Shown one piece after another: positions 2,387 through 52,908 of a DNA stretch of 64,000 nucleotides (its first letter is position 1; every line of letters starts with the position of its first letter). The position numbers and the translations under genes were made by a program. The stretch is from Escherichia coli (GTDB lineage: Bacteria > Pseudomonadota > Gammaproteobacteria > Enterobacterales > Enterobacteriaceae). The notes below the pieces were generated by a model that searched no databases, was not told the origin of the DNA, and worked only from the letters and a program-made list of their open reading frames with translations. Location of the stretch: assembly GCF_024700885.2 (NCBI RefSeq), contig NZ_CP117016.1. One strand, given 5' to 3'.

Positions 2387-3431
2387 CTTACTGAAAAAAC
2401 ACCACAATCTTGTTAAACATCGTCGGATTGGACTGATTACGTTGCACTTTCACCACATATTCCAGCTTATCTATTTGGCTTATCACCTACTCCAGACGCT
2501 GGTCATCCTTGACCAGTAGCCAGATATGGCTTTTGTCGCAGTCCTGAATCGGCAGGCAGAGAATGTCTTCAACGTTAAGAGCGCGACGGGCAAAAGCCCA
2601 CAAAGGTGAGTCATTACACCCGGATGGTAAACAGGCACTTCCTTGTTGTAGAAGCCGTTATATTGCCCATAATGTCTGGGTTTTTAATGCATACTGGGTA
2701 ACAACCGGACGAATCTTCGAATATCACTGGCGCTGCCAGCCGGTTTGAATTCATCTCACAACCCTGCATAGAGCGAATCTCCTGCCTGCACGTCACTCCA
2801 CTCCATGGTATCAACTTCACACTCTTTATCTGCGGCTAGCTTCAGCCACCAGATAAGCATCGACTATGAAAGATGAGCCATGACAACATAACGTTGGTAA
2901 CGCTCTGACGCCTTAATGGAAGATGCCTGCCACCATAGGGAATGTAAACGACTGAAGTGTGGCCTTTAATGCCGTGAACGGCTCATGGTCTCCTGGCACG
3001 GTTGCCGCCCCAACCTGTAACAACATTCCACAGTACAATGTCTGCCAGAGTCAGAGCCTCCCATGCTTGTTGTAGTAACTCTACCAGTTACGAACATCCT
3101 TCCTCAAAATTGTTGTCATATCTCGCATGGAAGAAAAGATCCTGGCTAAGGAGCAACACACAACGTATTGCGGAACTTGCATATTTTTCCTGTAACTAGT
3201 GTATTACCACATATGGTAATAGCTACCTGTGTGGTTTCGCTGGATAGCAAGGGGATTTATTCGCAAGTAAAATGCCTGATAAAATACACGAATCTAGTAA
3301 TCATCAATATTTACTCTGGTCGAATGACGCGTGAAAGTGGACGGCCAACAGACGCAGTCAGTGATCTACAGCCTGTTGAATAAAACCCCGGATGCTTCCC
3401 CCGATTCTGCAAGTAATACTTCGGTTATTTG

Positions 3432-9609: not shown

Positions 9610-10554
9610 TCAAGGGTACGGGTCCGCTTCGTTTGATTTGCGTGTTTTTAACAATTTTAAAACCCAGACATACTGTTCCGGATGTGGCCCCACCAAAATT
9701 TCCACTGTTTTGTTCATTTGTCGGGCAATCATTTTATTGTCCGCGCTGGCAATGCAAGCATCCATTGGTGGCCGAATTTCAATAGTCAGGAGATGTTTTT
9801 TTTCATCATAAACCGGGAAAAGTGGTATAATCATAGCCTGACTGATGTTCATCAGACGTCCAATGATTGGTAATGTCGCTTTATAGGTCGCAAAAAAATC
9901 AGCAAATTCACTGTATTCAGGACCATGATCCTGATCTGGGAGGTAATATCCCCAGTATCCCTGGCGTACTGACTGAATAAATGGTTTTATCCCATCCTCC
10001 CGGGCATGTAAGCGCCCCCCGAATTTACGCCGTACTGAATTCCAGACATAATCAATCACTGGATTTCGTTGCTGATGAAACATGGCGGCCATTTTTTTTC
10101 CCTGAGCTGCCAGCAACATTGCAGGAATATCCACGCTCCAGCCATGGGGAACCAGAAAAATCACATTTCTATTATTGTGTCGAATTTCCTCAAGAATTTC
10201 GAGGCCTTTCCAGAACACTCGTTTCTGGAACTTTTCCGGACCACGAATTGCCAGTTCTGCCATCATCACTATGGATTGCAATGCTGTGGCAAACATTTTG
10301 TCGACAATTATTTCCCGTTCTGTATCACTCTTTTCTGGGAAACAAAGCGATAAATTAATCGTCGCCCTGCGACGAGCTTTTTTGCTCAATCTGCCCACCC
10401 AACGCCCTATTTTTGCCAAGACAGGATCTCTGAATGAAGGGGGAAACATTGAAATACCTGCAATCATTCCCAAAAGGAACCATGTAGACCAGTAAACAGG
10501 GGAAAGGTAATTTTTCTTAAATTCAGGAATAAACTCAGATTTATATTTTTTCAT
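9610..10554 (-). CDS. Lipid A secondary acyltransferase, LpxM/MsbB family (msbB2-like paralog)
   Basis: Lauroyl/myristoyl acyltransferase motifs (FLVPHGWSVD, YLPDQDHGPE); virK fragment immediately upstream as in shf-virK-msbB2 modules. Confidence 0.8.
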   Translation of the reverse strand: MKKYKSEFIPEFKKNYLSPVYWSTWFLLGMIAGISMFPPSFRDPVLAKIGRWVGRLSKKARRRATINLSLCFPEKSDTEREIIVDKMFATALQSIVMMAELAIRGPEKFQKRVFWKGLEILEEIRHNNRNVIFLVPHGWSVDIPAMLLAAQGKKMAAMFHQQRNPVIDYVWNSVRRKFGGRLHAREDGIKPFIQSVRQGYWGYYLPDQDHGPEYSEFADFFATYKATLPIIGRLMNISQAMIIPLFPVYDEKKHLLTIEIRPPMDACIASADNKMIARQMNKTVEILVGPHPEQYVWVLKLLKTRKSNEADPYP

Positions 10555-10618
10555 TATTTAGTGCGAATGCCTCTACCAAAATTATCATTACTGTTTTATT
10601 CAGAGAATACATCAAACC

Positions 10619-11233
10619 TTAATTTAAATTCTGATGTTCTGAGTGTACAGGATATGCATCCAAAGAGCGGATAGTAGTTTCATGGATATAATCCAGCAAA
10701 GCGTATCGTTTTCGGTACTCAGAGCGTTTTTTACTGGCTATATCGCTTAGCGGCTTTCGAATCACCTGGGTTGGTAATCTGTACCAGTCACCACAGGTTT
10801 TTCCTGCTACAGACTCCCAGAAATCACTATAGACCGCAACAAAGGTTTTGCGTTTCTGATACCAGTATCTCAATTGCCGGAAAACATGACTGTGCTCACT
10901 GACTGCCAGACACTCAGAGATATTGCAAGCTTTCATCAACGCACAAAATGCTTCAAAAATAATCCGTTTTGGGAAAATCCCATAACAGGCCCGGGTTGCG
11001 CACCGAATAACATCAGGTCCGGTATTTTTAGGGGCTCCCTGTAATCCGCCAATAAAAGCAATGTGTCCATTTTGAGTCAGAATGACTGAAAATGTTAACC
11101 GGGCAATAACTGTTTTATTGTAAAACAATGACAACATCAACTCTCCTTCCCGGTCAAAACCACTGGGAGAACACTGGATATCAAAATTCTCTCCATCTTT
11201 CCCGATGAATTGGACTAATGATACCGATTTTTG
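10619..11233 (-). pseudogene. virK: virK-like (DUF535) gene, C-terminal part only, cut by IS1
   Basis: Open frame runs from the IS1 boundary (...FIGKDGENFDIQCSP...) to the stop at 10619; N-terminal half absent. Confidence 0.55.
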
Positions 11234-11288
11234 GGTAATGCTGCCAACTTACTGATTTAGTGTATGATGGTGATTTTAAGGTGCTTGC

Positions 11289-11564
11289 GTGGCTTCCATT
11301 TCCATCAGATGTCCTTCCTGCTCCGCTACTGAAGGCGTGGTGCGTAACGGCAAAAGCACTGCCGGACATCAGCGCTATCTCTGCTCTCATTGCCGTAAAA
11401 CATGGCAACTACAGTTCACTTACACCGCCTCTCAGCCCGGTACGCACCAGAAAATCATTGATATGGCCATGAATGGCGTCGGATGTCGCGCCAGTGCACG
11501 CATTATGGGCGTTGGCCTCAACACGGTTTTACGTCACTTAAAAAACTCAGGTCGCAGTCGGTAA
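11289..11564 (+). CDS. insA: IS1 InsA
   Basis: [40 protein letters not shown]... Confidence 0.9.
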
Positions 11565-11986
11565 CCTCGCGCATACAACCGGGCAGTGATGTGATTGTCT
11601 GCGCTGAAATGGACGAACAGTGGGGCTACGTCGGTGCTAAATCACGTCAGCGCTGGCTGTTTTACGCGTATGACAGGATACGGAGGACGGTTGTGGCGCA
11701 CGTCTTCGGTGAACGCACTCTGGCCACACTGGAGCGTCTTCTGAGCCTGCTGTCGGCCTTTGAGGTCGTGGTATAGATGACGGATGGCTGGCCGCTGTAT
11801 GAATCACGCCTGAAGGGAAAGCTGCACGTTATCAGCAAGCGTTACACTCAGCGCATTGAGCGACATAATCTGAATCTGAGACAACATCTGGCAAGGCTGG
11901 GACGGAAGTCACTGTCGTTCTCAAAATCGGTGGAGCTGCATGACAAGGTCATCGGGCATTATCTGAACATAAAACACTATCAGTAA
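11483..11986 (+). pseudogene. insB: IS1 InsB frame with premature stop (TAG at 11774-11776)
   Basis: Copy 2 reads ...VVIWMTDGW (TGG); copy 1 reads ...VVV(stop)MTDGW (TAG). Confidence 0.85.
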
Positions 11987-12071
11987 GTTGGAGTCATTAC
12001 CTCCTCCCGAACTCAAAGCTATCATACAGATAATTACTGGTTAACCCTATATAGGGCATTTTAAAGTGTTG

Positions 12072-12408: not shown

Positions 12409-12746
12409 AACGGCATCCATTTTACAAAAGATGGCCGTCTGTGTATTTATAATGAATACCTTCTACATGTTTAGAGTGCATAATCCACGACAAGGCGATA
12501 TCCTAAAAATTAGCTAGCAGGCAACTTTGATGGCATAGATAATGTTTTTAGTAAAAAAGAGTTGACTTAATATAATACAGCCTCTTCCTACATAAGAAGG
12601 AATGTGCTCACAAAAAAAAACATTAGTCTGCTTCCTGTTCTTACAATAATCAGTATTATGTATTTTATTTATATAGCAAAATATGCTTGTTACACCTGTC
12701 ATAATTAGGCATGGTAAAATTATTGACTGAACCCTGGGGGAGAAAG

Positions 12747-15351: not shown

Positions 15352-16736
15352 TTATTCAGCTGGCAGTGCTATGCGCCACGGAAGCAGTTCGCTGACCCGG
15401 TTGACCGGCCAGTCTGCTATGACGCCAGGCACATGGCGAAGGTAGCTTTCTGGATCCACGTCATTCAGTTTGCACGTCCCGATCAGGCTGTACAGTAGCG
15501 CTCCCCGCTCACCACCATGGCCAGAGCCGAAGAACAGGGTCTTCATCTTTTCACGCAACCAGCTTTCCAGGGATTTCAACAGCGGTTTCGTTTTTCGCTG
15601 ACGTTCAGCAAGCCGCTGCTCTGCCGGCATTCCCCTTATATCCGCCTCTATGGCGTACAACTGACCGATCTGCTCCAGGGCTTCTTCCGTCAGTGCTGAC
15701 GGGATGCGGACGTGCACATCGTGGATCTTTCGGCGGGCATGAGCCCAGCAGGCAGCTTCCGTTATCCCACCATTGCGATACAGCTCGTTGAACCCGGCGT
15801 ACGCATCCGCTTGCAGCACACCGCTGAAGCAAGCAAGATGAGTCTGCGGATGGATGCCTTTTCTGTCCGGGCTGTAAGCGAACCTCACTGCAGGTGCCAA
15901 CGCTGACCCGGCATTGCGGTCATCACGAACATACGCCCACAACCGCCCGGTCTTCGTCTTCTTATTACCCGGCAGCAGTACCTGGACCGGGGTATCATCG
16001 GCATGGAGTTTGCCGTCAGTCATGACATAGCCATGAAGCGCCTCTTCCAGCGGAGACAGCAGCCGGCAGCATGCATCCACCCAGCCCGACAGCAGTGAAC
16101 GGCTCAGCTCCACACCTTGCCGGCCGTATATTTCTGACTGGCAATACAGCGGGGTGTGCTCTGCATACTTCGAGGTCAGCACGCGGGCCAGCAGCCCCGG
16201 TCCGGCGATACCCCGCTCGATGGGCCGCGAAGGTGCAGGTGCCTGCACGATGGCATCGCACTGAGTACAGGCATGTTTTTCCCGTACCGTCCGGATAACC
16301 CGGAAGGCGCTACGCATCAACTCCAGCTGTTCGGCGGTATCCTCGCCCAGATAGCTCAGTGAACCGCCGCAGTTCGGGCAGCACGGCGCCGCAGGCAACA
16401 GTCGCTTTTCGTCACGGGGTAGTGATTCAGGGAACGGCTTACGGGTGCGGGTCTGACGCAACGGACGCTGTACTGCCGGGTCATACACCCTACCAGTCAG
16501 CGTATCGCTCTCTTTCTGAAGCCGGTTCAGATCGGCTTCCATTTGTGCGATACGGCGGGAGACTTTTTCGGAACGACTGCCGAAGTTCATCCGGCGGAGT
16601 TTATCCAGCTGCGCCTGCAGATGTCTATTTCGCGCTCCCGGTTGCTCAGCTTTTCCTGCAGGGCGTGGATCAGCGCTTCCTGTTCGGCCAGGCGCTGTTT
16701 CAGCAGGAAGATGTCGTCAGAAGAGATTTCGTTCAT
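15352..16736 (-). pseudogene. IS66 TnpC transposase with frameshift near the N-terminus
   Basis: MNEISSDDIFLLKQRLAEQEALIHALQEKLSNRERE... continues in another frame as ...QLDKLRRMNFGSRSEK...; shift lies around 16600-16630. Confidence 0.75.
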
Positions 16737-16785
16737 AAGCCCGTATTTTACCGGGCTTATTCTGTGACAACCAGGATAAAGAGAT

Positions 16786-17133
16786 TTACAGCATGGTCAG
16801 GGAGGTCAGCAGCCGCTTGGGCTGTCGCCAGTCGATACCTTCCAGCAGCATCGCCAGCTGCGCCTGCGTAAGGAACACTTTGCCATCACGGGCTGACGGC
16901 CAGGCGAAGCGCCCACGCTCCAGCCGTTTGGTCAGGAGGCACAGTCCGTCACCGGTGGACCACAGCAGTTTAACCTGACTGCCGCTGCGGCCCCGGAAAA
17001 TGAAAACATGGCCGGACATGGGATCGTCTTTCAGCGCCGTCTGTACTTTCGCAGCCAGGCCGTTGAAGCCATTTCTCATATCGGTGATACCGGCAACCAG
17101 CCAAATTTTGGTCCCGGAAGGTAACGGGATCAT
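16786..17133 (-). CDS. IS66 Orf2 (TnpB)
   Basis: MIPLPSGTKIWLVAGITDMRNGFNGLAAKVQ... Confidence 0.85.
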   Translation of the reverse strand: MIPLPSGTKIWLVAGITDMRNGFNGLAAKVQTALKDDPMSGHVFIFRGRSGSQVKLLWSTGDGLCLLTKRLERGRFAWPSARDGKVFLTQAQLAMLLEGIDWRQPKRLLTSLTML

Positions 17134-17468
17134 CGCTTCAGTTCCTGTATCAGCAGAGTCAGGAGCTTTTCGCTGACATTGCCATTGAAGCGGAGCGTCC
17201 CGTGCCGGAACGTTACCTCACAGCTGATACTGAGGGTTTCCGGGTCCTCTGCGAGCGATTCTGGCTGTTCGGCAGCTGCATCGGGAGTCACAGGAAGTAG
17301 CTGGGGGCTCTCTGAAGAAGGTAATAGCAGCTTTCCCTCGCGCCATTGTTGTCGCCATTTGAACAACAGATTGGCGTTAATGCCATTTTCAAGAGCAAGT
17401 TTTGAGATGGATATCCCGGGTTCACAGGAGGCAGCAACGAGCTGCTGTTTAAATTCGGGAGGATAATT
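17130..17468 (-). pseudogene. IS66 Orf1 (TnpA) without a canonical in-frame ATG start
   Basis: Frame encodes ...PEFKQQLVAASCEPGISISKLALENGINANLLFKWRQQWREGKL but is preceded by TGA with no ATG. Confidence 0.6.
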
Positions 17469-17602
17469 AGGGCAGCCTTTTCACCTGCCGGGAGTCACAT
17501 TTTTCTGCATATCTGACACTTTGGTTCCCACTACTTATTTGGTGGACACCACTTTGTCTAATTCGTCAGATTCTGACCAGACGGTTCAGGCTGTACGCTT
17601 AC

Positions 17603-17708
17603 CACTATTTTATCCCTGTTGAATTTGGTTAAGCCGGTGCAGACGCGCCGGGAAACGCACACCTGAACCGGCACAATAAAATACAATACAACCCCCTGTT
17701 ACTGGAGA
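17603..17708. repeat. Second copy of the 106-bp sequence at 3432-3537, abutting the IS66 terminus
   Basis: Exact match. Confidence 0.85.
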
Positions 17709-17864
17709 TACGAATGGAATGACGAGGCAGCCTGTCAGTCACAGGGGGCTGTTGGCATAAAATCAACGGAAAGGCCACCAACACCGGAATTAAGCTCCAC
17801 AGTCCCCGCACTGGCAATCCATTCCCGGGAAAGGCATCACCGCAAACTGCTCCGGAGGCAACCA

Positions 17865-18299
17865 TTACAGCCTCTGTAACGGATTATCAGCCCTGGCATC
17901 TTCCGACGGCACCTCCTGCCGCCCCCACGCCCTGCTGTATACCCCGGTACCGCAGCGTGGGCAGCACTTTTCCCCCTCATAATCTTCGTCACACATCACA
18001 CAAAACCACTTTCTCACCTTCACCGTATAATCCGGAACCGTCATGCCCTGCAGATGCAAACGACGGGCCTCTTTCTCCGCCGGGTCAAGCCAGGTACATC
18101 GCAGCAGGATTTTTTCAGCGACAGTCATCTGGTCATGTTCAAACCACGGTGGTTGTCCGTCATTGCCCCGCTGAAGTGTTAACGGGCATCCACAGGACAC
18201 ACAGCACAAAACGTCCTGTCGGTTGTGCTTCGCAGCTTCTTTCGCCGTAACAAAATGGCCTTTGCTGTCATTCGCCATATAACAGTTCAGAATTCGCAT
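17865..18299 (-). CDS. Cys-rich zinc-ribbon protein (144 aa), paralog of the next gene
   Basis: CxxC...PWFEH...WxCxxC...YxGExxCxxCxTG pattern shared with 18287-18694; AGGAGG RBS. Confidence 0.55.
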   Translation of the reverse strand: MRILNCYMANDSKGHFVTAKEAAKHNRQDVLCCVSCGCPLTLQRGNDGQPPWFEHDQMTVAEKILLRCTWLDPAEKEARRLHLQGMTVPDYTVKVRKWFCVMCDEDYEGEKCCPRCGTGVYSRAWGRQEVPSEDARADNPLQRL

Positions 18300-18694
18300 A
18301 TTTCCTCCTGAGTTGTCCGGGGAATACTGAATCCTCCGGTCTGGCAGTGTGTGCAGTACTGCTCCCCATAATAATCGTGGTGACATTGTCTGCAGTGCCA
18401 GCTGGCTTTACGCACCACGGGTAAGGCATCCGATACGAATTGCTGCAGACGTTTAATCAACTGTATTTCTCTGCGCTCCGGCCTGACATAAGGGCACTGT
18501 TGACCGTGCTCTGTCAGCCTGTCGTCAGTGTGTTCAAACCAGGGAAGTTCAGTGTCGTATTGCGGATGGTATCTGAGTGCACTGCCACACAAGTGGCAGG
18601 TGTAGTTAGCATAAGGTGCGTCCTGTGCAGTACGGGCGCCCGTCAGACGTCCGTTGCCATCAAGAGCGATAAAGGATTTTGCGTACATAGTCAT
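18287..18694 (-). CDS. Cys-rich zinc-ribbon protein (135 aa), paralog
   Basis: Same Cys/PWFEH pattern; overlaps the downstream paralog start by 13 bp. Confidence 0.55.
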   Translation of the reverse strand: MTMYAKSFIALDGNGRLTGARTAQDAPYANYTCHLCGSALRYHPQYDTELPWFEHTDDRLTEHGQQCPYVRPERREIQLIKRLQQFVSDALPVVRKASWHCRQCHHDYYGEQYCTHCQTGGFSIPRTTQEEICEF

Positions 18695-18947
18695 ATTCCT
18701 TAGCCGCCAGACGACACGCAGGCAACAGCCGTCCCGGTACGGGCAGCGTGGTCAGGGTGTGAATGGCGGTTCAGTTAAAATCTGGACTGGAGTTTGGGTA
18801 AAGCAGGCTGGTTGCTGTTACAGCACTGTGGTTGTCACACAATGGAACACTGACGTAAAAAACAGTCAGTGGGCGAGTGGATACATCGTTGCCGCCAGAC
18901 AACAACCCATACTTTTGGTTTGCCGGATATTGGCGCGCCAGTCGTGC

Positions 18948-19517
18948 TCAACTCCGGCTACAGCCAAAATTGCGCTCACCGGTGCAGTGAGCTTTGGTAT
19001 GCTCTTTCGCCAGATAGTCAGCACGTTCCAGCACTTGCTGAAAGCCGGTGTCATCATTACGCGCCAGCCACACCGCCGGCCAGGCCGGAAAATGCACCAG
19101 CGTGGCATGGCACCCGACATCCACTCCCAGGGCACTGCACCACGCCTGTTTAATCATCCCGGCCAGAGACTCCGGAGCGCGGTAATCACCGGCACGACAC
19201 CAGGTATCCCGGTTGACCAGCAGCATCAGGTGATAGTGTTTTTTACCTTTGAACTCCCCAAACTCCCGGGCCCAGACGTAATGCAGGGGGGTGGGATGCA
19301 CGCGTTTACCTTTCCGATGCTTACGTTTCTGGTAAGCGTCGATTCGGGCTTTCAGGGCATTGATGAAGCGGGATATCACAGCTGCGTCCGTTGCTGCCGG
19401 TACATCCGGGAGACGCAGGTCAACCCGCAATGCCGTCAGGCGGGGATGAACATTCAGTGCGTGCCGCACCGTCTCACGAATACGTTGCTGCCAGAAGGGG
19501 TTGTATTTGTAGGTCAT
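18948..19517 (-). CDS. Inovirus Gp2-like / YagK-YfjJ family protein
   Basis: LTALRVDLRLPD...HYHLMLLVNRD... resembles CP4-type prophage YagK/YfjJ; GGAGA RBS before MTYKYNPF. Confidence 0.6.
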   Translation of the reverse strand: MTYKYNPFWQQRIRETVRHALNVHPRLTALRVDLRLPDVPAATDAAVISRFINALKARIDAYQKRKHRKGKRVHPTPLHYVWAREFGEFKGKKHYHLMLLVNRDTWCRAGDYRAPESLAGMIKQAWCSALGVDVGCHATLVHFPAWPAVWLARNDDTGFQQVLERADYLAKEHTKAHCTGERNFGCSRS

Positions 19518-21144
19518 GGTTAAATCTCCGTATGGTTCATACGGAATAGCCACGTCGTAAAAAATGCGCAGAGTCCCTGAAGTGACCTCCGGCAGGACAC
19601 TGTCTCAGGCACTCTGTGATAACCCGAACGGTCGTCTCCGGACTGACGGTTGAATTTTCAGCGTCGTTTTTTAATGTAAAAAACCGGTTACGGGTAAGGC
19701 TGTGAGGAGGGAGTGATGGTGATACGCAAAAAGAAGTGCAGGGATTGTGGAAACGCGATTACTCATAATACAGTGTGTTGCCCGTATTGTGGTTCTGTCG
19801 ACCCCTTCGGCTACTACCGGAATACAGACCGTATCGTTACCATACTGCTGGCGCTGATTATTGTGGTCCTGCTGACTACTGTCAGCGTCAGTGTGTGTAT
19901 ACTGTGTAGCTGGTGAGATAACGGTTCATGTATCCCCTGAGCTGACAGTGTACCGTGTATATTAAGCGTAACCGACAGGTTCTCCTTCATACCATATTAA
20001 ATTTTCCAGGGATTGCCGCTGCCTTATTTCGTCTCATACAGGAAAACTCATCTGGGTTTCTGACAAATACGCGAAACTCACAGCCCCTCAATATCAACCA
20101 CACGTTGTAAGCCGGTAATACCTGAAAATCAGCCTATTACCGCCCACGCCTCCGGCACCATTCCCTTTTGATTTCGAATTCTTTGTTGTCGCTATACCGC
20201 TTAATGTTCCCGGTCCTCCGGTGCAGATAACACCGGAGTCATCGTAGCGCTGCTTCAATATTCAGGTGACATATTTCCAGACGGAAGCCGGCGCGCGATC
20301 GTAAAGTTTGTTCATTGTCAGTTCTGCCAGCCGGTTGTCAACGGCAGAGTTAAAGGCTTCCAGCTCCGCAAGGGTAAGTTTATAACGCGTGTGGGAATTC
20401 ACTTTTCCCGCGTCTCCTGACGTATTACGGGCTGCCACTTACCTGGTGTCCCGCAATACAGCCTTAGTGTTCCGTTATCGGGGATCCGGACGCACCGCAA
20501 CAACCGGGGAAGTATTTCTGGTTTAGAGCATTGTCAAGAGGGATTTCTCAGCCCCTCACTCACCGCTCAGTCTCAGGGCAGGAGCATTAATACGCTCAGT
20601 TCATGTCTTATACAGGAATGGGCACAGGGGGAGCTGGCGTGTCACTGCTGATTTTACGCATCAGCGTTCATGTATCTGCACTCTGATACATGAACGATTC
20701 ACAGCGCTCTGTTACCGGAGAGATTTACTCTCTTAGCTTACTCTGGCAAATCCTTTACGTTACTCTCTGATGACTTCTTATATTTATAATACCAATCAGA
20801 CAGCCTTATCCCATCGGTGATATCAGTCTCCTCCTCGCCAGGAACGGGCTGACTCACTGTAACCACCTCCGAAAACAACTCTGCAATTATCAGAACGCCT
20901 GCTTCTCTCCCTGTCCTCACGAAAACTATCCCCTCTTTATCGCGCGTGCGTGCGGAAGCATCTTTTCGCAACAACCACCCGGTATACCGGTACGGCTCAG
21001 CCACCGCAACCTCCCCGTTTATCTCCTGGCGGTCACATTCCCGATTATTTTTTACGTTTCTCCCCGGTTGTTATGCCGGTGAAGGTGGCGCGCTGTTTTC
21101 ATGACCACACCGGCTGGTTTAACAACATCCGGAGGAACATTCTC

Positions 21145-21351
21145 ATGGCTACCCCAGTTTCACTGATGGATGACCAGATGGTCGACATGGCATTTATCAC
21201 TCAACTGAACGGCCTGACAGATAAGTGGTTTTACAGGCTCATCAGGGATGGGGCCTTTCCGGCTCCCATCAAGCTGGGCCGCAGCTCCCGCTGGCTGAAA
21301 AGTGAAGTGGAAGCCTGGCTACAGGCGCGTATTGCACAGCCCCGCCCGTAA
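21145..21351 (+). CDS. alpA: AlpA-family phage regulatory protein (68 aa)
   Basis: MATPVSLMDDQMVDMAFITQLNGLTDKWFYRLIRDGAFPAPIKLGRSSRWLKSEVEAWL; GGAGG RBS. Confidence 0.8.
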   Translation: MATPVSLMDDQMVDMAFITQLNGLTDKWFYRLIRDGAFPAPIKLGRSSRWLKSEVEAWLQARIAQPRP

Positions 21352-21439
21352 TTTCTGACCGTTATCCGTTCACCCGCAGCAGACGTAATCCCCGGCCTGC
21401 CGGCGGCATTCTGCTGCCTGTTATATCCCCGTGAGGAAT

Positions 21440-22048
21440 ATGAAAATGAAACAACAGTATCAGACCCGCTACGAATGGCTCCACGAAAGCTACCAGAAAT
21501 GGCTGACCGGCTTCACCCGGCACGCCGTATCCTGGGGCGTGTGTCATCCGAATATCTACTACTTCCATAATCTGACGCCCGGTTGGGTGTCATTCAATGG
21601 TGAAAAACCGGAGATTGCCATCGTACCCCAGAGCCTGCACCGGCTGATTTATGGCCCTGACAAACGGGCCACGCCGCCCCTGGATGATGATCTGATTGTG
21701 AATTTATGCACCAGTGAACATCTGCTGGTTCATCATCCGATGCTGGAAGGCATTCTCCTGTCTGAATGTGAACGTCTGAGGCAGCGTTCTCTGGCAAATA
21801 AACTGATCAGCCTCTTCCGTCAGTTTGGTGGCACGGAGTTGCGCCTCAAACTGGTCTGGCTTTGCTGGCTTGATTTAATGACCGGAAACAGCCTTGAAGA
21901 CTGGAAAGAGAACCTGAAACGGAAATCAGAAAAAGAGCTGGAGGAATGGATCATCAACCGTCAGAGGCAGAGCGCAGCACTGACGGATCTGATGGATCAG
22001 TACGTGCTCCTGGCATACCGCACAACGGTTGACGATAGCCGCAACTGA
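21440..22048 (+). CDS. Hypothetical island protein (about 202 aa)
   Basis: ORF directly downstream of alpA; no family recognised. Confidence 0.35.
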   Translation: MKMKQQYQTRYEWLHESYQKWLTGFTRHAVSWGVCHPNIYYFHNLTPGWVSFNGEKPEIAIVPQSLHRLIYGPDKRATPPLDDDLIVNLCTSEHLLVHHPMLEGILLSECERLRQRSLANKLISLFRQFGGTELRLKLVWLCWLDLMTGNSLEDWKENLKRKSEKELEEWIINRQRQSAALTDLMDQYVLLAYRTTVDDSRN

Positions 22049-23233
22049 TGCCGGTTGCTTCCGGAAGGTGTGACAAAATACGGAAATGATGATGCTCCCG
22101 GCCCCGCATGCTCACCTGCAGAGCGTGTTCGTCGTCATCATACTGAGCCATGACGGGCGTCTTAAGGGCATCCTGTCATTGCTGAGCAGGCAACACCACC
22201 AGAGGAGCCACGGACAGGGATGTTCTTTACAGCCCGATACACGCCAGGTTCTCAGCAGACTGAATGTGCAGGTGCGGTTATTCACCAGAAATGGCATGCT
22301 GCGGTACATACCCATCCTGGTGACAATATGTACGTGGCGACAGCGATCCCGGCACTGTGGAAGAGACTCACTCAGCCTGCAGGATATTCTTTCCGGCATC
22401 CGGGAATGTCCGCCTGAATGCAAACAGGATGATATTTGAATCCGTAATACTGTTCTTTCATCATAAATAATTTATGCAGATACAGTTAACCGTTACAGTA
22501 GCCGGTTTGTTTTACCGGGAAATAATATCCGTCAGACTGATGCCGGAACATATCTGAAACACGTTATGATGTTTTGTTATCAGAAATGTTGTATATTCTT
22601 ATCCGTGGCGACAGTTTAATGCCCTCTGGTATCACCTTGGATTTGCCCCTATATTTACGGGACACGCCTCTTTTCATTGTGCTCCTTTTCAGACTTCATT
22701 TTCCGTAAGTGTTCCCCGGCATAAAGGAGGTACCTTTCTGGCGTTTATAACTCTCTTTATCGGTGACGCCGGTAATACAGGGAATACCACACCGACAAAC
22801 GAGGTATTAACAGACGATATTTCAGTGTCCATAATTTTTCTGTCCGGTTAAATAACGTCAGTCTGCTGCCCTCTGACTGTAATCATCAAAGCCGGAATGC
22901 ATACCGGGTTACAACGTAAAAAAAGTGATGCTGGCCCCCGGTGCAGCTGGCGGGCGAAACATGTTTACCTTTCAATACCCCCTGTCTGCAGTCTCCACTC
23001 TTCCATCCTCTTAAGCTACGTCGGCCACATGAGTGCACTTCCATGATAACAGGTATTCCTGTCAGCATAACGAAGCCGGTTACCTTCCCTTCCTCCTGCA
23101 TTTCCTGTCAGAATGACTGTACAGCGCGCAGATTGCCTTTTTATTGACCACCTTAATATACCATTATAAACTTCTTTTTATCATGTTATTATCACCTTAT
23201 TATGTTTAATTTTTAAGCAACCGGAGAAAGAGG

Positions 23234-24151
23234 ATGGTTCAGAAAATTTTGTCGGATAAGGTTATGAATGAAAGAACAAATGCGTATTACTCTTATTATC
23301 TTGGAGAGCGTAATATCTCCGTACTGCCCCTTAATGTTTATGATCCCCCGGAACGTTTTATCGCTTACATAAAAAAAAACAGAGAAAATCTGAACATCAC
23401 ACTTTCAGATTTTGAACTTGAACAAATCATTTCTGGTATGCGTCTGAAGGCACTGGCCTCCCTGGTGCCCCTGGAAAAAATATCCTGGATCGCGGGCAGT
23501 GAACGTGCATGCTTATTTTCCTGGTATCTGTTGATGCAGTTTATCCAGAATAACAGGACAAAAATAAGCGCAGACTTGCTTCAAAAGAATAAACTGTATC
23601 TTAAAGAAGAGTATTTAGAAGGGAATGCCTTCCCGTCGGACTCATCGACACAGTTCAGACAAATACTCAGAGTTCTCGATATTCTTTCTGATAAGAATTT
23701 GCGGGATGAGTGGATAATCCAGACCAAAGACAGATGGATGCGGGCATTTAAATCAAAGAGTCCTTTCAGTTACCTCCTCCCGGAGAACGAACATGAATGC
23801 ATATGGACATGGAATTATTTGAAGGGAAAAAATATTGCACTGGAAAAACTGGCCAGTTTTCCTGGTTCTGCTGATATTTACCACGCAATTCACCTTTCAT
23901 TTGACATATGGGTTACCTGTCCACTCACCTCACCTGACGATATAAAAAATTTCAGAAACAGTTTCAATAAGGCCAAGGCGCAGCGCAAGTACAAAAAAAT
24001 GCAGGAAGATAAAGTCAATGTACAGTTTTTTCTTGACGCAGAAACCAGGGCGCAGCTCAAAGAATTATCGAGGGTCAGAAGACTCAGTACCGGCGAAATG
24101 CTGCATGACCTGATTGTTGAAGAGTATAAAAGGTACCGACATTCCAGATAA
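23234..24151 (+). CDS. Hypothetical protein (305 aa)
   Basis: ORF with GGAGAAAGAGG RBS directly upstream of the GTPase gene; no family recognised. Confidence 0.4.
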   Translation: MVQKILSDKVMNERTNAYYSYYLGERNISVLPLNVYDPPERFIAYIKKNRENLNITLSDFELEQIISGMRLKALASLVPLEKISWIAGSERACLFSWYLLMQFIQNNRTKISADLLQKNKLYLKEEYLEGNAFPSDSSTQFRQILRVLDILSDKNLRDEWIIQTKDRWMRAFKSKSPFSYLLPENEHECIWTWNYLKGKNIALEKLASFPGSADIYHAIHLSFDIWVTCPLTSPDDIKNFRNSFNKAKAQRKYKKMQEDKVNVQFFLDAETRAQLKELSRVRRLSTGEMLHDLIVEEYKRYRHSR

Positions 24152-24235
24152 TTTCAGACATATATTATCTCCGTGAGTCCCCCACCACCTTTCCGGTGTG
24201 CGGGGGTTTTGTCTTTTTTCACCGGGAATACATGT

Positions 24236-25108
24236 ATGAATCCGTCTGATGCCATTGAGGCAATTGAAAAACCGCTCTCCTCCCTGCCTTACTCACTTTC
24301 CCGTCACATCCTGGAACATCTGCGCAAACTCACCAGTCACGAACCCGTGATTGGCATTATGGGTAAAAGCGGGGCCGGTAAATCCTCACTCTGTAATGCA
24401 CTGTTTCAGGGGGAGGTCACCCCGGTCAGTGATGTTCACGCCGGCACCCGGGAAGTGCGGCGCTTCCGTCTGAGTGGCCACGGTCACAGCATGATTATCA
24501 CTGACCTGCCCGGGGTGGGCGAGAGCCGGGACAGGGATGCAGAGTATGAAGCCCTGTACCGTGACATTCTGCCTGAACTTGACCTGGTACTGTGGCTGAT
24601 TAAAGCCGATGACCGTGCCCTGTCTGTGGATGAGTATTTCTGGCGACACATCCTGCACCGGGGACATCAGCAGGTGCTGTTTGTGGTGACGCAGGCCGAC
24701 AAAACGGAGCCCTGCCATGAATGGGATATGGCCGGCATTCAGCCTTCTCCCGCACAGGCACAGAACATTCGTGAGAAAACAGATGCGGTATTCCGGCTGT
24801 TCCGGCCCGTACATCCGGTTGTGGCCGTATCGGCCTGCACCGGCTGGGAACTGGATACGCTGGTCAGTGCGCTCATGACAGCGCTTCCCGACCATGCCGC
24901 CAGTCCCCTGATGACCCGCCTGCAGGACGAGCTGCGCACGGAATCTGTCCGGTCTCAGGCCCGTGAACAGTTTACCGGTGCGGTGGACCGGATATTTGAC
25001 ACGGCGGAGAGCGTCTGTATTGCCTCTGTTGCACGCACGGTTCTGCGTGCCGTCCGTGACTCGGTGGTCTCTGTTGCCCGCGCTGTATGGAACTGGATTT
25101 TCTTCTGA
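24236..25108 (+). CDS. YeeP/YfjP-family small GTPase (290 aa), apparently intact
   Basis: P-loop GIMGKSGAGKSSLCNALF, G3 DLPGVGES, G4 TQADK; lies upstream of flu as yeeP does in CP4-44. Confidence 0.75.
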   Translation: MNPSDAIEAIEKPLSSLPYSLSRHILEHLRKLTSHEPVIGIMGKSGAGKSSLCNALFQGEVTPVSDVHAGTREVRRFRLSGHGHSMIITDLPGVGESRDRDAEYEALYRDILPELDLVLWLIKADDRALSVDEYFWRHILHRGHQQVLFVVTQADKTEPCHEWDMAGIQPSPAQAQNIREKTDAVFRLFRPVHPVVAVSACTGWELDTLVSALMTALPDHAASPLMTRLQDELRTESVRSQAREQFTGAVDRIFDTAESVCIASVARTVLRAVRDSVVSVARAVWNWIFF

Positions 25109-25227
25109 ACACTCTGCCAGGGGAAATGCCTGATTACATTGCGTTAACCAACTGAAAACATGACACAAACACCTCATGCCCCTCCTGTTTCTCTTGCGTG
25201 ACTGCTCTGCTGTTAATAGAATAAAAC

Positions 25228-25263
25228 GATCGATAAAACAGGTATCGATCGTTACTATCGATC
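25228..25263 (+). promoter_or_regulatory. Three clustered GATC (Dam) sites in the flu leader: probable OxyR/Dam phase-variation switch
   Basis: GATC at 25228, 25247 and 25260, about 220 bp upstream of the flu ATG. Confidence 0.6.
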
Positions 25264-25480
25264 GTTTATAGTGGTTAATGGTCTGCGAAAAGGCAGCTGA
25301 ATCTCTTCATCATGCAGAACGGAATTGCACACAACGGACTGATACTTCTCTGGCGGATGAGAGAGGGGAAGCATTTATGTCCGGGAAAAACCACTTTATC
25401 TGACCATGCTGTTTTGTACCTGCCGGTATCCACATTTGTGGGTACCGGCTTTTTTATTCACCCTCTGTAAGGAAAAGCTG

Positions 25481-28327
25481 ATGAAACGACATCTGAACAC
25501 CAGCTACAGGCTGGTATGGAATCACATTACGGGCACCCTGGTGGTGGCTTCCGAACTGGCGCGCTCACGGGGAAAACGCACCGGTGTGGCGGTTGCGCTG
25601 TCTCTTGCTGCTGTCACGTCAGTCCCGGTACTGGCTGCTGACACGGTCGTACAGGCGGGAGAAACCGTGAGCGGCGGAACACTGACAAATCATGACAACC
25701 AGATTGTCTTCGGTACGGCCAACGGAATGACCATCAGTACCGGTCTGGAGTATGGGCCGGATAACGAGGCCAATACCGGCGGACAATGGATACAAAATGG
25801 CGGTATCGCCAACAACACTACTGTCACCGGTGGTGGTCTTCAGAGAGTGAATGCCGGAGGAAGCGTTTCAGACACGGTTATCAGTGCCGGAGGCGGACAG
25901 AGCCTTCAGGGGCAGGCAGTGAACACCACTCTGAACGGCGGTGAGCAGTGGGTACATGAAGGCGGGATTGCAACGGGTACCGTCATTAATGAGAAGGGCT
26001 GGCAGGCCGTCAAATCCGGCGCAATGGCAACCGACACGGTTGTGAATACCGGCGCGGAAGGGGGACCGGATGCAGAAAATGGTGATACCGGGCAGTTTGT
26101 TCGCGGAAATGCCGTACGTACCACTATCAATGAAAATGGTCGTCAGATTGTGGCTGCTGAAGGAACAGCAAATACCACTGTGGTTTATGCCGGCGGCGAC
26201 CAGACGGTACACGGGCATGCGCTGGATACCACACTGAATGGCGGTTACCAGTATGTGCACAACGGAGGCACAGCCTCTGACACGGTTGTAAACAGTGACG
26301 GCTGGCAGATTGTCAAGGAAGGTGGTCTGGCGGATTTCACCACCGTTAACCAGAAAGGCAAACTGCAGGTGAACGCCGGTGGTACAGCCACGAATGTCAC
26401 CCTGAAGCAGGGAGGCGCACTGGTCACCAGTACGGCGGCAACCGTCACCGGCAGCAACCGTCTGGGCAATTTCACTGTGGAAAACGGTAATGCTGACGGT
26501 GTTGTTCTGGAGTCCGGTGGTCGCCTGGATGTACTGGAGGGCCATTCAGCCTGGAAAACACTGGTGGATGACGGCGGAACCCTGGCAGTGTCTGCCGGTG
26601 GTAAGGCAACAGATGTCACCATGACATCCGGTAGTGCCCTGATTGCAGACAGTGGTGCCACTGTTGAGGGGACCAATGCCAGCGGTAAGTTCAGTATTGA
26701 TGGCACATCCGGTCAGGCCAGCGGACTGCTGCTGGAAAATGGCGGCAGCTTTACGGTTAATGCCGGAGGACTGGCCAGCAACACCACTGTCGGACATCGT
26801 GGAACACTGACGCTGGCTGCCGGGGGAAGTCTGAGTGGCAGAACACAGCTCAGTAAAGGTGCCAGCATGGTACTGAATGGCGATGTGGTCAGTACCGGCG
26901 ATATTGTTAACGCAGGGGAGATTCGCTTTGATAATCAGACGACACCGGATGCCGCGCTGAGCCGTGCTGTTGCAAAAGGCGACTCCCCGGTAACGTTCCA
27001 TAAACTGACCACCAGTAACCTCACCGGTCAGGGTGGCACCATCAATATGCGTGTTCGCCTTGATGGCAGCAATACCTCTGACCAGCTGGTGATTAATGGT
27101 GGTCAGGCAACCGGCAAAACCTGGCTTGCGTTTACAAATGTCGGAAACAGTAACCTCGGGGTGGCAACCTCCGGACAGGGTATCCGGGTTGTGGATGCAC
27201 AGAATGGCGCCACCACAGAAGAAGGTGCGTTTGCCCTGAGTCGCCCGCTTCAGGCCGGCGCCTTTAACTACACCCTGAACCGTGACAGCGATGAAGACTG
27301 GTACCTGCGCAGTGAAAATGCTTATCGTGCTGAAGTCCCCCTGTATACATCCATGCTGACACAGGCAATGGACTATGACCGGATTCTGGCAGGCTCCCGC
27401 AGCCATCAGACCGGTGTAAACGGTGAAAATAACAGCGTCCGTCTCAGCATTCAGGGCGGTCATCTCGGTCACGATAACAACGGCGGTATTGCCCGTGGAG
27501 CCACGCCGGAAAGCAGCGGCAGCTATGGCTTCGTCCGTCTGGAGGGTGACCTGCTCAGAACAGAGGTTGCCGGTATGTCTCTGACGACAGGGGTGCATGG
27601 TGCCGCAGGCCATTCTTCCGTTGATGTTAAGGATGATGACGGTTCCCGCGCCGGCACGGTCCGGGATGATGCCGGCAGCCTGGGCGGATACCTGAATCTG
27701 ACACACACGTCCTCCGGCCTGTGGGCTGACATTGTGGCACAGGGAACCCGCCACAGCATGAAAGCGTCATCGGACAATAACGACTTCCGCGCCCGCGGCT
27801 GGGGCTGGCTGGGCTCACTGGAAACCGGTCTGCCCTTCAGTATCACTGACAACCTGATGCTGGAGCCACAACTGCAGTATACCTGGCAGGGACTTTCCCT
27901 GGATGACGGCCAGGATAACGCCGGTTATGTGAAGTTCGGGCATGGCAGTGCACAACATGTGCGTGCCGGTTTCCGTCTGGGCAGCCACAACGATATGAGC
28001 TTTGGTGAAGGCACCTCATCCCGTGACACCCTGCGCGACAGTGCAAAACACCGTGTGCGTGAACTGCCGGTGAACTGGTGGGTACAGCCTTCTGTTATCC
28101 GCACCTTCAGTTCCCGGGGTGACATGAGCATGGGGACAGCCGCCGCCGGCAGTAACATGACGTTCTCACCGTCCCGGAATGGCACGTCACTGGACCTGCA
28201 GGCCGGACTGGAAGCCCGTGTCCGGGAAAATATCACCCTGGGCGTTCAGGCCGGTTATGCCCACAGTGTCAGCGGCAGCAGCGCTGAAGGTTATAACGGT
28301 CAGGCCACGCTGAATGTGACTTTCTGA
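25481..28327 (+). CDS. flu: Antigen 43 autotransporter adhesin (948 aa)
   Basis: [35 protein letters not shown]... signal/passenger repeats and C-terminal beta-barrel ending ...GQATLNVTF. Confidence 0.9.
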
Positions 28328-28397
28328 TAATCAGGTCACTCTCCTTCAGGCCCCGGTCATCATGACCGGGGCTTTTTACTTTCAGGGAGCAACAGAT

Positions 28398-28556
28398 ATG
28401 CCGGGTTGTACATCACGTTTATTGCCCGAAGGCCCTTTCTCACGCGAACAGGCTGTTGCCGTCAAAACAGCTTACCGCAATGTATTTACTGAAGATGACC
28501 AGGGAACATATTCCCGGCTGGTTATCCGTAATGCTGAAGGTCAGTTGCGCTGGTGA
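28398..28556 (+). CDS. Small hypothetical protein (52 aa)
   Basis: ORF with AGGGAG RBS between flu and the DUF932 gene. Confidence 0.35.
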
Positions 28557-28710
28557 TGCCGGAACACAGCTTAATACTCAGCTCGCCAGTTAAGGGCTTC
28601 TCAGACAATAAACGTCATTCATTTCATCTGTCAGGCCGCGTCTTCTCCGGGAGACGCAGCTTTTTCATTTATTACACCAGTAAATCGTAACCACCGATAA
28701 GGAGCAAATT

Positions 28711-29529
28711 ATGCGACTAGCCAGTCGTTTTGGTTATGCGAACCAGATACGCCGTGACCGTCCGCTGACACACGAAGAACTGATGCACTATGTTCCCAGT
28801 ATTTTCGGTGAAGACCGGCATACTTCCCGCAGTAAACGATATGCGTACATTCCCACCATCACCGTACTGGAAAGCCTGCAGCAGGAAGGTTTTCAGCCAT
28901 TCTTCGCCTGCCAGACCCGCGTGCGCGACCCGGGCCGCCGGGGATACACAAAACACATGCTGCGTCTGCGGCGGGCCGGAGAGATAAACGGAGAACATGT
29001 CCCTGAAATTATTCTGCTCAACTCTCATGACGGTACCTCCAGCTACCAGATGCTGCCGGGTTACTTCAGATTCGTCTGCCAGAATGGCTGCGTCTGCGGT
29101 CAGTCTCTGGGGGAAGTGCGTGTTCCACACCGGGGAAATGTGGTGGAGAAAGTTATCGAAGGGGCTTACGAAGTGGTGGGGGTTTTTGACCGGATTGAGG
29201 AAAAGCGTGATGCCATGCAGTCGCTGGTCCTGCCGCCACCGGCACGCCAGGCGCTGGCACAGGCGGCACTGACTTACCGTTATGGTGACGAACATCAGCC
29301 AGTCACCACCGCTGACATTCTGACGCCACGACGCCGGGAGGATTACGGTAAGGACCTGTGGAGTACTTATCAGACCATCCAGGAGAATATGCTGAAAGGC
29401 GGGATTTCCGGCCGCAGTGCAAAAGGAAAACGTATCCACACCCGTGCCATTCACAACATCGACACCGATATTAAGCTCAACCGCGCATTGTGGGTAATGG
29501 CAGAAACGCTGCTGGAGAGCCTGCGCTGA
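28711..29529 (+). CDS. DUF932-family protein (YfjQ/YafZ-like)
   Basis: Position and sequence typical of CP4-type prophage DUF932 proteins. Confidence 0.6.
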   Translation: MRLASRFGYANQIRRDRPLTHEELMHYVPSIFGEDRHTSRSKRYAYIPTITVLESLQQEGFQPFFACQTRVRDPGRRGYTKHMLRLRRAGEINGEHVPEIILLNSHDGTSSYQMLPGYFRFVCQNGCVCGQSLGEVRVPHRGNVVEKVIEGAYEVVGVFDRIEEKRDAMQSLVLPPPARQALAQAALTYRYGDEHQPVTTADILTPRRREDYGKDLWSTYQTIQENMLKGGISGRSAKGKRIHTRAIHNIDTDIKLNRALWVMAETLLESLR

Positions 29530-29870
29530 TGCAGCATGTCCCTGAAGGCGTGATTCAGGCACCAGAATCACCCGACGCCCCGGAGGCGCTGCCGGGGTGT
29601 CGTTCCATTTCTGATGATGACCTGTGCGCCTGGTGTACCCGTCTGCTTTACCGTCCCGGAGAAATCAGTCTGTGCAGACTGAGTATACAGGCAATGGCAT
29701 CTGGCCATCCGTCTGTGACCGGAACGGTTACGCGTACGGCTGTCCGGAATTTCAGCCGAATATCATTCATCCCTGATATTACCGGGTCATCACGGTCAGT
29801 GATGAACGTGATGTTGCCAGGTCCCGACCTTTACTCCCTCTCATTTATTCACATTACAAGGATTTCATAC

Positions 29871-30344
29871 ATGAAAACATTGTCTCAGAACACCACCTCT
29901 TCGGCCTGTGCACCGGAGACTGACCTGCAACAACTGGTTGCCACCCTCGTCCCTGATGAACAGCGCATCAGCTTCTGGCCGCAGCACTTTGGCCTCATTC
30001 CACAGTGGGTGACCCTGGAGCCCCGTGTCTTCGGCTGGATGGACCGTCTGTGCGAAGACTACTGCGGTGGTATCTGGAATCTGTACACCCTGAACAACGG
30101 CGGGGCATTTATGGCACCCGAACCGGATGACGATGATGACGAAACATGGGTACTGTTCAATGCCATGAACGGTAACCGCGCTGAAATGAGTCCGGAAGCT
30201 GCCGGCATTGCTGCCTGTCTGATGACGTACAGTCATCATGCCTGTCGTACGGAGTGTTATGCCATGACGGTCCATTATTACCGGCTGCGGGATTACGCCC
30301 TGCAGCATCCGGAATGCAGCGCCATTATGCGCATCATCGACTGA
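29871..30344 (+). CDS. Antirestriction protein, KlcA/ArdB-like (YfjX family)
   Basis: MKTLSQNTTSSACAPETDLQQLVATLVPDEQRISFWPQHFG...; upstream frame open to 29490 but homology begins here. Confidence 0.65.
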   Translation: MKTLSQNTTSSACAPETDLQQLVATLVPDEQRISFWPQHFGLIPQWVTLEPRVFGWMDRLCEDYCGGIWNLYTLNNGGAFMAPEPDDDDDETWVLFNAMNGNRAEMSPEAAGIAACLMTYSHHACRTECYAMTVHYYRLRDYALQHPECSAIMRIID

Positions 30345-30359
30345 ATGGAGAGAAGTACA

Positions 30360-30836
30360 ATGCAACAGCTTTCCTTTCTGCCCGGAGAGATGACGCCCGG
30401 CGAGCGCAGCCTCATTCAACGGGCCCTGAAAACCCTGGACCGCCATCTTCATGAACCCGGCGTGGCCTTCACCTCCACCCGTGCGGCACGAGAATGGCTG
30501 ATTCTGAACATGGCGGGACTGGAGCGTGAAGAGTTCCGGGTGCTGTATCTGAACAACCAGAATCAGCTGATTGCCGGTGAAACCCTCTTCACCGGCACCA
30601 TCAACCGCACGGAAGTCCATCCCCGTGAAGTGATTAAACGCGCCCTGTATCACAATGCCGCTGCTGTGGTGCTGGCACACAATCACCCGTCCGGTGAAGT
30701 CACACCCAGCAAGGCAGACCGCCTTATCACGGAACGTCTGGTACAGGCACTGGGCCTGGTGGATATCCGGGTGCCGGACCATCTGATAGTCGGTGGCAGC
30801 CAGGTTTTCTCCTTTGCCGAATATGGTCTGCTTTAA
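30360..30836 (+). CDS. RadC-like JAB-domain protein (YeeS/YkfG family)
   Basis: JAMM motif HNHPSGEVTPSKADRLIT; GGAGAG RBS. Confidence 0.75.
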   Translation: MQQLSFLPGEMTPGERSLIQRALKTLDRHLHEPGVAFTSTRAAREWLILNMAGLEREEFRVLYLNNQNQLIAGETLFTGTINRTEVHPREVIKRALYHNAAAVVLAHNHPSGEVTPSKADRLITERLVQALGLVDIRVPDHLIVGGSQVFSFAEYGLL

Positions 30837-30898
30837 CCCGTCACAACCACATCACACCTGTTTTCACTTTTATCTTCTGTCTTCAGAGGTATCCCACT

Positions 30899-31120
30899 AT
30901 GAAAATCATCACCCGTGGCGAAGCCATGCGTATTCACCGTCAGCATCCGGCATCCCGTCTTTTTCCGTTCTGTACCGGCAAATACCGCTGGCACGGCAGT
31001 GCTGAAGCGTATACCGGTCGTGAAGTGCAGGATATTCCCGGTGTGCTGGCCGTGTTTGCAGAACGCCGTAAGGACAGTTTTGGTCCGTATGTCCGGCTGA
31101 TGAGCGTCACCCTGAACTGA
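30899..31120 (+). CDS. YeeT-like DUF987 protein (73 aa)
   Basis: Position and size as yeeT upstream of cbeA. Confidence 0.6.
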   Translation: MKIITRGEAMRIHRQHPASRLFPFCTGKYRWHGSAEAYTGREVQDIPGVLAVFAERRKDSFGPYVRLMSVTLN

Positions 31121-31282
31121 TGTTCCGTCACCCGGAAAACGAGTACGACTGGCTGAGCTCAGACGCCGCTGTGGATGAGGCCCTGCTCATCAACGAATAC
31201 ACCTTCACCGAAGCCGGTCTGTGCACCGGCTGACCCGTCATCGTTAAACTATCATTCACCGATTTTCTGTGAGGATTTTATC

Positions 31283-31651
31283 GTGTCAGACACACTTTCC
31301 GGGACAACGCATCCCGATGACAATGACGACCATCCCTGGTGGGGACTACCCTGCACAGTGACGCCCTGTTTCGGCGCCCGTCTGGTGCAGGAGGGTAACC
31401 GGTTGCATTACCTTGCCGACCGTGCCGGTATCAGAGGCCGGTTCAGAGATGCGGATGCGTACCCTCTGGACCAGGCCTTTCCGCTGCTGATGAAACAACT
31501 GAAATTAATGCTCACCAGTGGTGAACTGAATCCCCGCCATCAGCATACCGTGACACTGTATGCGAAGGGGCTGACCTGTGAAGCCGACACCCTCGGCTCC
31601 TGTGGTTACGTTTATCTGGCTGTTTATCCGACACCTGAAACGAAAAAGTAA
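31283..31651 (+). CDS. cbeA: CbeA/YeeU-family antitoxin (122 aa), GTG start
   Basis: [50 protein letters not shown]...; GAGGA RBS before GTG. Confidence 0.75.
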
Positions 31652-31740
31652 ACCACCAGAATAACCTTCTGCTCCGGCCTGGTGTTTTCACCACGCCACT
31701 GTCCCATTTTTTATCTCTGCATATCAGGAAAATCTTCAGT

Positions 31741-32115
31741 ATGAAAACATTACCCGACACGCATGTACGGGAGGTATCGTGCTGCCCGTCTCCCGTCACC
31801 ATCTGGCAGACACTGCTCACCCGGTTACTGGACCAGCATTACAGCCTTACGCTGAATGACACACCGTTCGTGGATGAACGCGTGATTGAGCAGCATATTG
31901 AGGCAGGCATTTCACTGTGTGATGCAGTGAACTTTCTCGTGGAAAAATACGCACTGGTACGAACTGACCAGCCGGGATTCAGCGCAGGAGCCTCGTCGCA
32001 GTTAATCAACAGCATTGATATTCTCCGGGCTCGCCGGGCAACAGGCCTGATGACCCGCCACAACTACAGAACGGTGAACAATATCACCCTGGGTAAGTAT
32101 CCGGAGGCGAAATGA
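31741..32115 (+). CDS. cbtA: CbtA/YeeV-family toxin (124 aa)
   Basis: [43 protein letters not shown]...; follows the antitoxin. Confidence 0.75.
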
Positions 32116-36598: not shown

Positions 36599-36603
36599 TT
36601 GAT

Positions 36604-39741: not shown

Positions 39742-39743
39742 GA

Positions 39744-52765: not shown

Positions 52766-52838
52766 AGAAATCACAGGGCATTGCTAATGCAGGTACGCAA
52801 TATTACCTGAAGCTAAAACCTGCACGTTAGCCCTTTGT

Positions 52839-52883
52839 AGGCCAGATAAGACGCGTCAGCGTCGCATCTGGCATAAACAAAGC
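52839..52883. repeat. REP (palindromic unit) element
   Basis: GCCCTTTGTAGGCCAGATAAGACGCGTCAGCGTCGCATCTGGCAT. Confidence 0.6.
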
Positions 52884-52908
52884 GCACTTTACCGACAATC
52901 CGAACAGA

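Follow-up and report, generated by a model that had tools for sequence, protein, structure and literature searches.

The closest described relative of the element studied here is IS1F of Escherichia coli K-12 MG1655 (4518472-4519239; ISfinder/GenBank X52538), in which insA7 (b4294) is annotated as encoding the InsA repressor and insB7 (b4576) is classed as a pseudogene, the element itself being labelled "insertion sequence:IS1F". The insA7 gene is transcribed in K-12, and IS1F is single-copy in K-12 as well as in B strains harbouring 27-28 IS1A-related copies (PMC6462304). Of 47,877 repository plasmids, no more than five carried IS1F (PMC8867978). In wild-type K-12, every sequenced IS1 insertion conferring the Bgl+, FZD+ or SWM+ phenotype was of the consensus type, and a K-12 strain devoid of the two consensus IS1 copies, with only IS1B, IS1C, IS1D and IS1F left, yielded no IS1 insertions (PMC12428005). 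When InsAB' was over-expressed from another locus in a strain carrying only IS1B, IS1C, IS1D and IS1F, 44% of 48 sequenced insertions originated from IS1F, which was the commonest donor among these four remaining, normally immobile copies (PMC12903888). InsAB' was found to be strongly cis-preferring, with trans effects appearing only at raised levels (PMC12903888), and InsA acts as a repressor and as a competitor at IS1 ends (PMC12428005). Two papers from 2025 on the immobility of IS1F do not mention a stop codon and loosely ascribe the immobility to many substitutions. Our literature search for insB7/b4576 found nothing relevant. A second class of comparable elements consists of trans-mobilised non-autonomous IS derivatives, such as miniIS1 constructs and MITE-like elements, with which IS1F has in common functional ends without a functional transposase and the dependence on a helper (PMC12903888). 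In contrast to these derivatives, IS1F is full-length, carries a point mutation instead of an internal deletion, and in most genomes has remained a single, unamplified copy.

The window analysed here (the whole 64,000-nucleotide stretch of E. coli DNA) is chromosomal and was 99.997% identical to positions 4559570-4623569 of E. coli MLI114, the differences being a single mismatch and a homopolymer indel. It carries two IS1 copies of 768 bp in the same orientation: copy 1, an IS1F-type element without a flanking 9-bp target duplication (11234-12001, plus strand), and copy 2, an intact IS1A-type element (49127-49894, plus strand). The two copies aligned without gaps and differed at 69 positions (91% identity). 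The first-pass annotation of this DNA had reported that the same insB codon reads TAG in copy 1 and TGG in copy 2, and had proposed a pairwise alignment as a check. The alignment was run and both codons were read directly, giving TAG in the insB frame of copy 1 at 11774-11776 and TGG in copy 2 at 49667-49669, both at IS1 nt 541-543. The two alleles are separated by a single G-to-A transition. The annotated division of the InsB frame into 97 and 69 codons agreed exactly with the ORF list, where a 97-aa ORF (11483-11776) and a 69-aa ORF (11777-11986) lie in one frame; the sum of 97 codons, the stop and 69 codons is 167, the normal insB length (504 nt in K-12 insB1).

Copy 1 was identical to K-12 IS1F at 763 of 768 positions (99.35%), including the TAG codon, and the five substitutions (nt 156, 210, 319, 677 and 703) did not affect the terminal repeats. 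The two elements share the 768-bp length, the inverted repeats, an intact insA and the A6C site, and they occupy broadly the same neighbourhood, the leuX-to-fim variable region. They differ at two InsA residues, His34 and Thr52 of copy 1 being Pro and Lys in K-12 IS1F, and in their flanks: K-12 IS1F lies between ykiE-fecI (left) and yjhU (right), copy 1 between a truncated virK (left) and an ariR-like island (right). The copies of MLI114 and M217 matched copy 1 at 768 of 768 positions. RefSeq tags the orthologous copies of MLI114, 20AR0300, ST648 and M217, all of which have TAG, as "programmed frameshift; internal stop". The feature of copy 1 is the long-known insB pseudogene of IS1F, which both the K-12 annotation and RefSeq already record; the proper label is, as there, IS1F with an insB pseudogene, and the stop is no new mutation. 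The IS1A/IS1E ("consensus") type, represented here by copy 2, agrees with copy 1 in length, organisation, frameshift site and Pfam domains, whereas it differs from copy 1 by the 69 nucleotides, the TGG codon, a full 232-aa InsAB' and its mobility in the K-12 experiments.

In its size, ends and insA/insB' overlap with AAAAAAC, copy 1 fits the IS1-family layout (approximately 768 bp with repeats of approximately 23 bp). The left inverted repeat (IRL; 11234-11256, plus strand) was intact and matched the degenerate IS1 left-end pattern without a mismatch. The right inverted repeat (IRR; 11979-12001, minus strand) was also intact and identical to that of K-12 IS1F, and its three mismatches to the left-end pattern reflect the normal IRL/IRR asymmetry of IS1. 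The insA gene, encoding the InsA repressor and DNA-binding protein, is an intact 91-codon ORF with a GTG start (11289-11564, plus strand; ORF list and Pfam), and its product matched the Pfam families Zn_ribbon_InsA and HTH_Tnp_IS1. The A6C (AAAAAAC) programmed -1 frameshift site was read directly at 11540-11546 (plus strand) and is intact. After the InsAB' fusion of copy 1 had been rebuilt across this site, Zn_ribbon_InsA, HTH_Tnp_IS1 and DDE_Tnp_IS1 were all detected above the Pfam cut-offs in copy 1. Every intact IS1 has Trp at the position of the TAG codon (11774-11776, plus strand), which corresponds to codon 163 in the 232-codon InsAB', and the uninterrupted 232-codon frame of an autonomous IS1 was absent. 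The stop falls at position 62 of 131 in DDE_Tnp_IS1 (PF03400) and splits the domain into positions 1-61 and 63-131. The 5' piece of the insB frame (11483-11773, plus strand; 97 codons of the ORF) contributes the InsAB' residues up to 162, and the 162-residue product retains Zn_ribbon_InsA, HTH_Tnp_IS1 and positions 1-61 of DDE_Tnp_IS1. The 3' piece (11777-11986, plus strand; 69 codons and TAA) holds positions 63-131 and is cut off from translation. Of the acidic residues, D109 (EMDEQW) lies upstream of the stop, and D166 (MTDGW) and E191 (RIERHN) lie downstream, with a D-to-E spacing of 24 residues. On the basis of this spacing and of the IS1 DDE positions reportedly given by Ohta et al. in 2002, we take D109, D166 and E191 to be the presumed catalytic triad of InsAB'.

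We are highly confident that copy 1 is an IS1F with an inherited amber codon (TGG to TAG, Trp163 to stop), which is non-autonomous and has ends that can still be used in trans. Translation frameshifted at the A6C site would stop after 162 residues, and the truncated product would consist of the DNA-binding domains plus the first DDE half, without the triad's Glu and presumed second Asp. Since half of the DDE domain, with the presumed Asp and Glu, would be missing, no active transposase is predicted from copy 1, and the element would be non-autonomous. Because the inverted repeats, the promoter region, insA and the frameshift site are intact, copy 1 should still be able to make InsA, and its ends should remain substrates for InsAB' provided by another IS1, e.g., copy 2. 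Copy 2, located 38 kb away, is a possible source of InsAB' in trans for copy 1: it differs from K-12 IS1A by one synonymous nucleotide, and its potential as a helper follows from its proteins being the same as those of the mobile K-12 element. The orthologue of copy 2 is annotated in RefSeq as an intact IS1A family transposase.

The first-pass annotation had further regarded copy 1 as probably non-autonomous and as open to mobilisation in trans. The former view was strengthened by the loss of DDE_Tnp_IS1 positions 62-131 and by the immobility of K-12 IS1F (PMC12428005), an element with this same TAG and with ends identical to those of copy 1, and the latter by the large share of K-12 IS1F among the insertions sequenced under InsAB' over-expression (PMC12903888). 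Two qualifications are needed: TAG is the ancestral state of a widespread IS1F and not a private mutation of copy 1, and mobilisation in trans has been seen with the K-12 copy and only at raised transposase levels, so that it applies to copy 1 by analogy. While the sequence, the identity with K-12 IS1F and the frequency of the allele were determined directly, the immobility and trans-mobilisation come from the literature on the K-12 copy, and we infer by analogy that copy 1 would behave in the same way. The stop codon provides the simplest explanation for the immobility described in the 2025 papers, which omit it; as regards TAG being the sole cause, restoring TGG might not restore activity.

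The frequency and ancestry of the TAG allele were evaluated with an 81-mer centred on the stop codon. Its exact sequence was present in 2737 records from the 5426 complete RefSeq E. coli genomes (about half), and the same 81-mer with TGG had an exact match in 2308 records. As 2599 of the 5426 genomes carried the K-12-type ykiE/fecI-IS1F junction, most TAG copies plausibly represent a single, fec-linked and vertically inherited IS1F. Among plasmids, 4,972 of the 5,000 best-scoring records, the limit of the search, matched the TAG 81-mer at 95-99% identity, and the plasmid rows inspected differed from it by one base, as expected of a TGG copy. Intact IS1F-type or IS1X-type elements of enterobacterial plasmids (e.g., p89_MLI23-1, pMRSN346647_113.1 and Shigella pINV) were 98.8-99.1% identical to copy 1, and the 81-mer of the intact IS1F-type elements differed from that of copy 1 only at the TAG/TGG base. 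The E. coli plasmids p89_MLI23-1 and pMRSN346647_113.1 have the same right flank as copy 1, together with TGG and an open InsAB' frame. Because all other IS1 types, as well as the IS1F-type plasmid copies sharing the right flank, have TGG, these alignments indicate that TGG is the ancestral state of the codon. The elements of p89_MLI23-1 and pMRSN346647_113.1 (L006 and L007, each at 2503-3270) are annotated as intact, yet in both of them C8Y alters the first cysteine pair of the InsA/InsAB' zinc ribbon, so that an open frame is no guarantee of an active element.

An extension of the preferred reading would make the TAG-bearing IS1F a long-lived non-autonomous partner of active IS1, its ends being used by foreign InsAB' and its InsA and 162-residue stump inhibiting IS1. 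If true, this would account both for the exact-end flank replacements, such as the one that removed fec, shf, capU and the 5' part of virK here, and for the presence of IS1F in at least three non-fec plasmid contexts; we nevertheless hold such a partnership to be unlikely. It is very doubtful that the defective IS1F has been kept because it is useful, with InsA, and possibly an end-binding truncated InsAB', damping other IS1 copies. Such a role could draw on the intact insA of copy 1, which is transcribed in K-12 (PMC6462304), on the known activity of InsA as a repressor and competitor at IS1 ends (PMC12428005) and on the persistence of the TAG allele in about half of the complete E. coli genomes. 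However, vertical inheritance beside the fec operon, with the ykiE-IS1F junction in 2599 genomes, is a simpler account of this persistence, and the B strains have accumulated 27-28 IS1A-related copies despite their IS1F (PMC6462304). All three insA-only changes among the TAG copies (H34P, T52K and G74D) were non-synonymous, which suggests that there is no purifying selection on the gene. Domestication of insA was rejected as unsupported, with three of three insA-only changes being non-synonymous among the few substitutions seen.

Bypass of the stop by amber suppression, readthrough or re-initiation at the adjacent ATG with reassembly of the fragments, any of which would leave copy 1 autonomous, is highly improbable. 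An ATG (11777-11779) directly follows the TAG in a stop-start arrangement, but it is the native Met164 of every IS1. Laboratory K-12 supE/glnV44 strains would insert Gln at TAG, which is a point in favour of bypass, whereas the split parts D109 from D166 and E191. The few plasmid occurrences of IS1F (PMC8867978) were likewise entered in favour of bypass; against it stand the absence of IS1 insertions in K-12 carrying IS1F without the consensus copies (PMC12428005) and the single-copy status of IS1F in K-12 and B strains (PMC6462304). A true TGG misread as TAG through an error in sequencing or assembly, the two codons being separated by one base call, is a reading with a negligible chance of being correct and was rejected, as the same TAG occurs in K-12 MG1655, in at least four other independent chromosomes (MLI114, 20AR0300, ST648 and M217) and, as the exact 81-mer, in thousands of assemblies, and PGAP flags an internal stop in every inspected orthologue except one recombinant.

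No 9-bp target duplication was present at copy 1 (flanks cgatttttg and tcctcccga), at K-12 IS1F or at four full-length TAG plasmid copies in three distinct non-fec contexts. The 8-9 bp direct target duplication that marks a simple insertion therefore offered no proof of simple transposition of these TAG copies. The missing duplication bears on the history of the flanks, i.e., deletion or recombination, and not on the identity of the element. The flanks of the TAG element varied between fecI-ykiE and yjhU in K-12, fecI-ykiE and an ariR-like island in M217, and virK' and an ariR-like island in the window. Away from fec, TAG-bearing IS1F was located on pEk140_mcr-10 of Enterobacter roggenkampii, two IncF plasmids and the IncY plasmid pHeN100_02 (L012, L014-L016); these copies represent at least three contexts, have a few private substitutions each and lack target duplications.

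On the left side of copy 1, a virK remnant without its N-terminus (10619-11233, minus strand; ORF list and RefSeq annotation of MLI114) abuts the IRL exactly. We infer that this virK'/IRL junction arose through a trans-catalysed adjacent deletion that started exactly at the IRL, after the TAG had appeared. A complete shf-capU-virK-lpxM operon is found in M217, approximately 20 kb from IS1F. In MLI114, the whole leuX island contained no fec, shf, capU or 5' part of virK, and the 50 kb beyond the window, up to tRNA-Leu (leuX), lacked a second IS1F as well as shf/capU and fec, which makes an adjacent deletion more likely than an inversion. An IS1-mediated inversion was rejected because the second, inverted IS1F expected beside the 5' part of virK was absent from these 50 kb. 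The junction itself was found in 32 genomes; the TAG allele is far more widespread, so the deletion probably postdates the inactivation, and the transposase would then have been supplied in trans. Alternatively, the flanks could have been exchanged by homologous recombination between IS1F copies. An origin from the Shigella virulence plasmid (msbB2/virK) was rejected, since no plasmid record covered the left junction and the window matches the chromosome of MLI114 almost completely. Judging by the exact-end junctions, which have no target duplications, a defective IS can apparently go on reshaping the leuX-fim variable region with the help of other copies.

The same virK'-IS1-right-flank locus of strain CUVET21-37 (L005, 2001-2768) contains a mosaic IS1, with IS1A-type alleles at nt 452-714, 40 and 45. 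This IS1 differed from copy 1 at 31 positions, 30 of which had the allele of copy 2, and the rest of the element was IS1F backbone. TGG is restored in CUVET21-37, and the open transposase frame (WP_274503367.1) is called intact by RefSeq. The patch is a gene conversion from an IS1A-type copy and represents a natural repair of the nonsense codon.

Several other features of the window were recorded. At 9610-11233, a second lpxM (msbB2-like, 314 aa) is intact, and the adjoining virK is cut exactly at the left end of IS1F; of the shf-capU-virK-msbB2 operon, which is whole in M217, shf and capU are lacking here. An A9 run at 12611-12619, just upstream of the ariR-like gene, corresponds to A10 in MLI114 and is the sole indel over 64 kb, reflecting either a homopolymer sequencing difference or real slippage. 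The region between IS1F and the restriction cluster (15352-32115; island coordinates converted from the MLI114 annotation) carries typical CP4-like cargo, including a frameshifted IS66, an Ag43/Cah autotransporter (25481-28327) and a CbtA/YeeU toxin-antitoxin pair (31283-32115). It is followed by a defence cluster (33707-44658) composed of an SNF2/DrmD-like helicase (33707-36598), a methyltransferase (36619-39741) and a restriction enzyme (39744-43124), both of type III, and an HNH endonuclease encoded on the minus strand (43786-44658), which RefSeq annotates as phosphorothioated-DNA-binding. Copy 2 (49127-49894; flanks examined over 46000-52890) stands where K-12 has 4540870-4546839, without a target duplication. 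The 5970 bp missing at this site begin 88 bp upstream of fimB and include the first 1744 bp of fimD. With fimB, fimE, the fim switch, fimA, fimI, fimC and the 5' part of fimD lost, no type 1 fimbriae are expected in the strain. The IS1-fimD junction had a match in up to 43 complete genomes, although some of these matches are joined from two separate pieces; the single-piece matches included ETEC E24377A.
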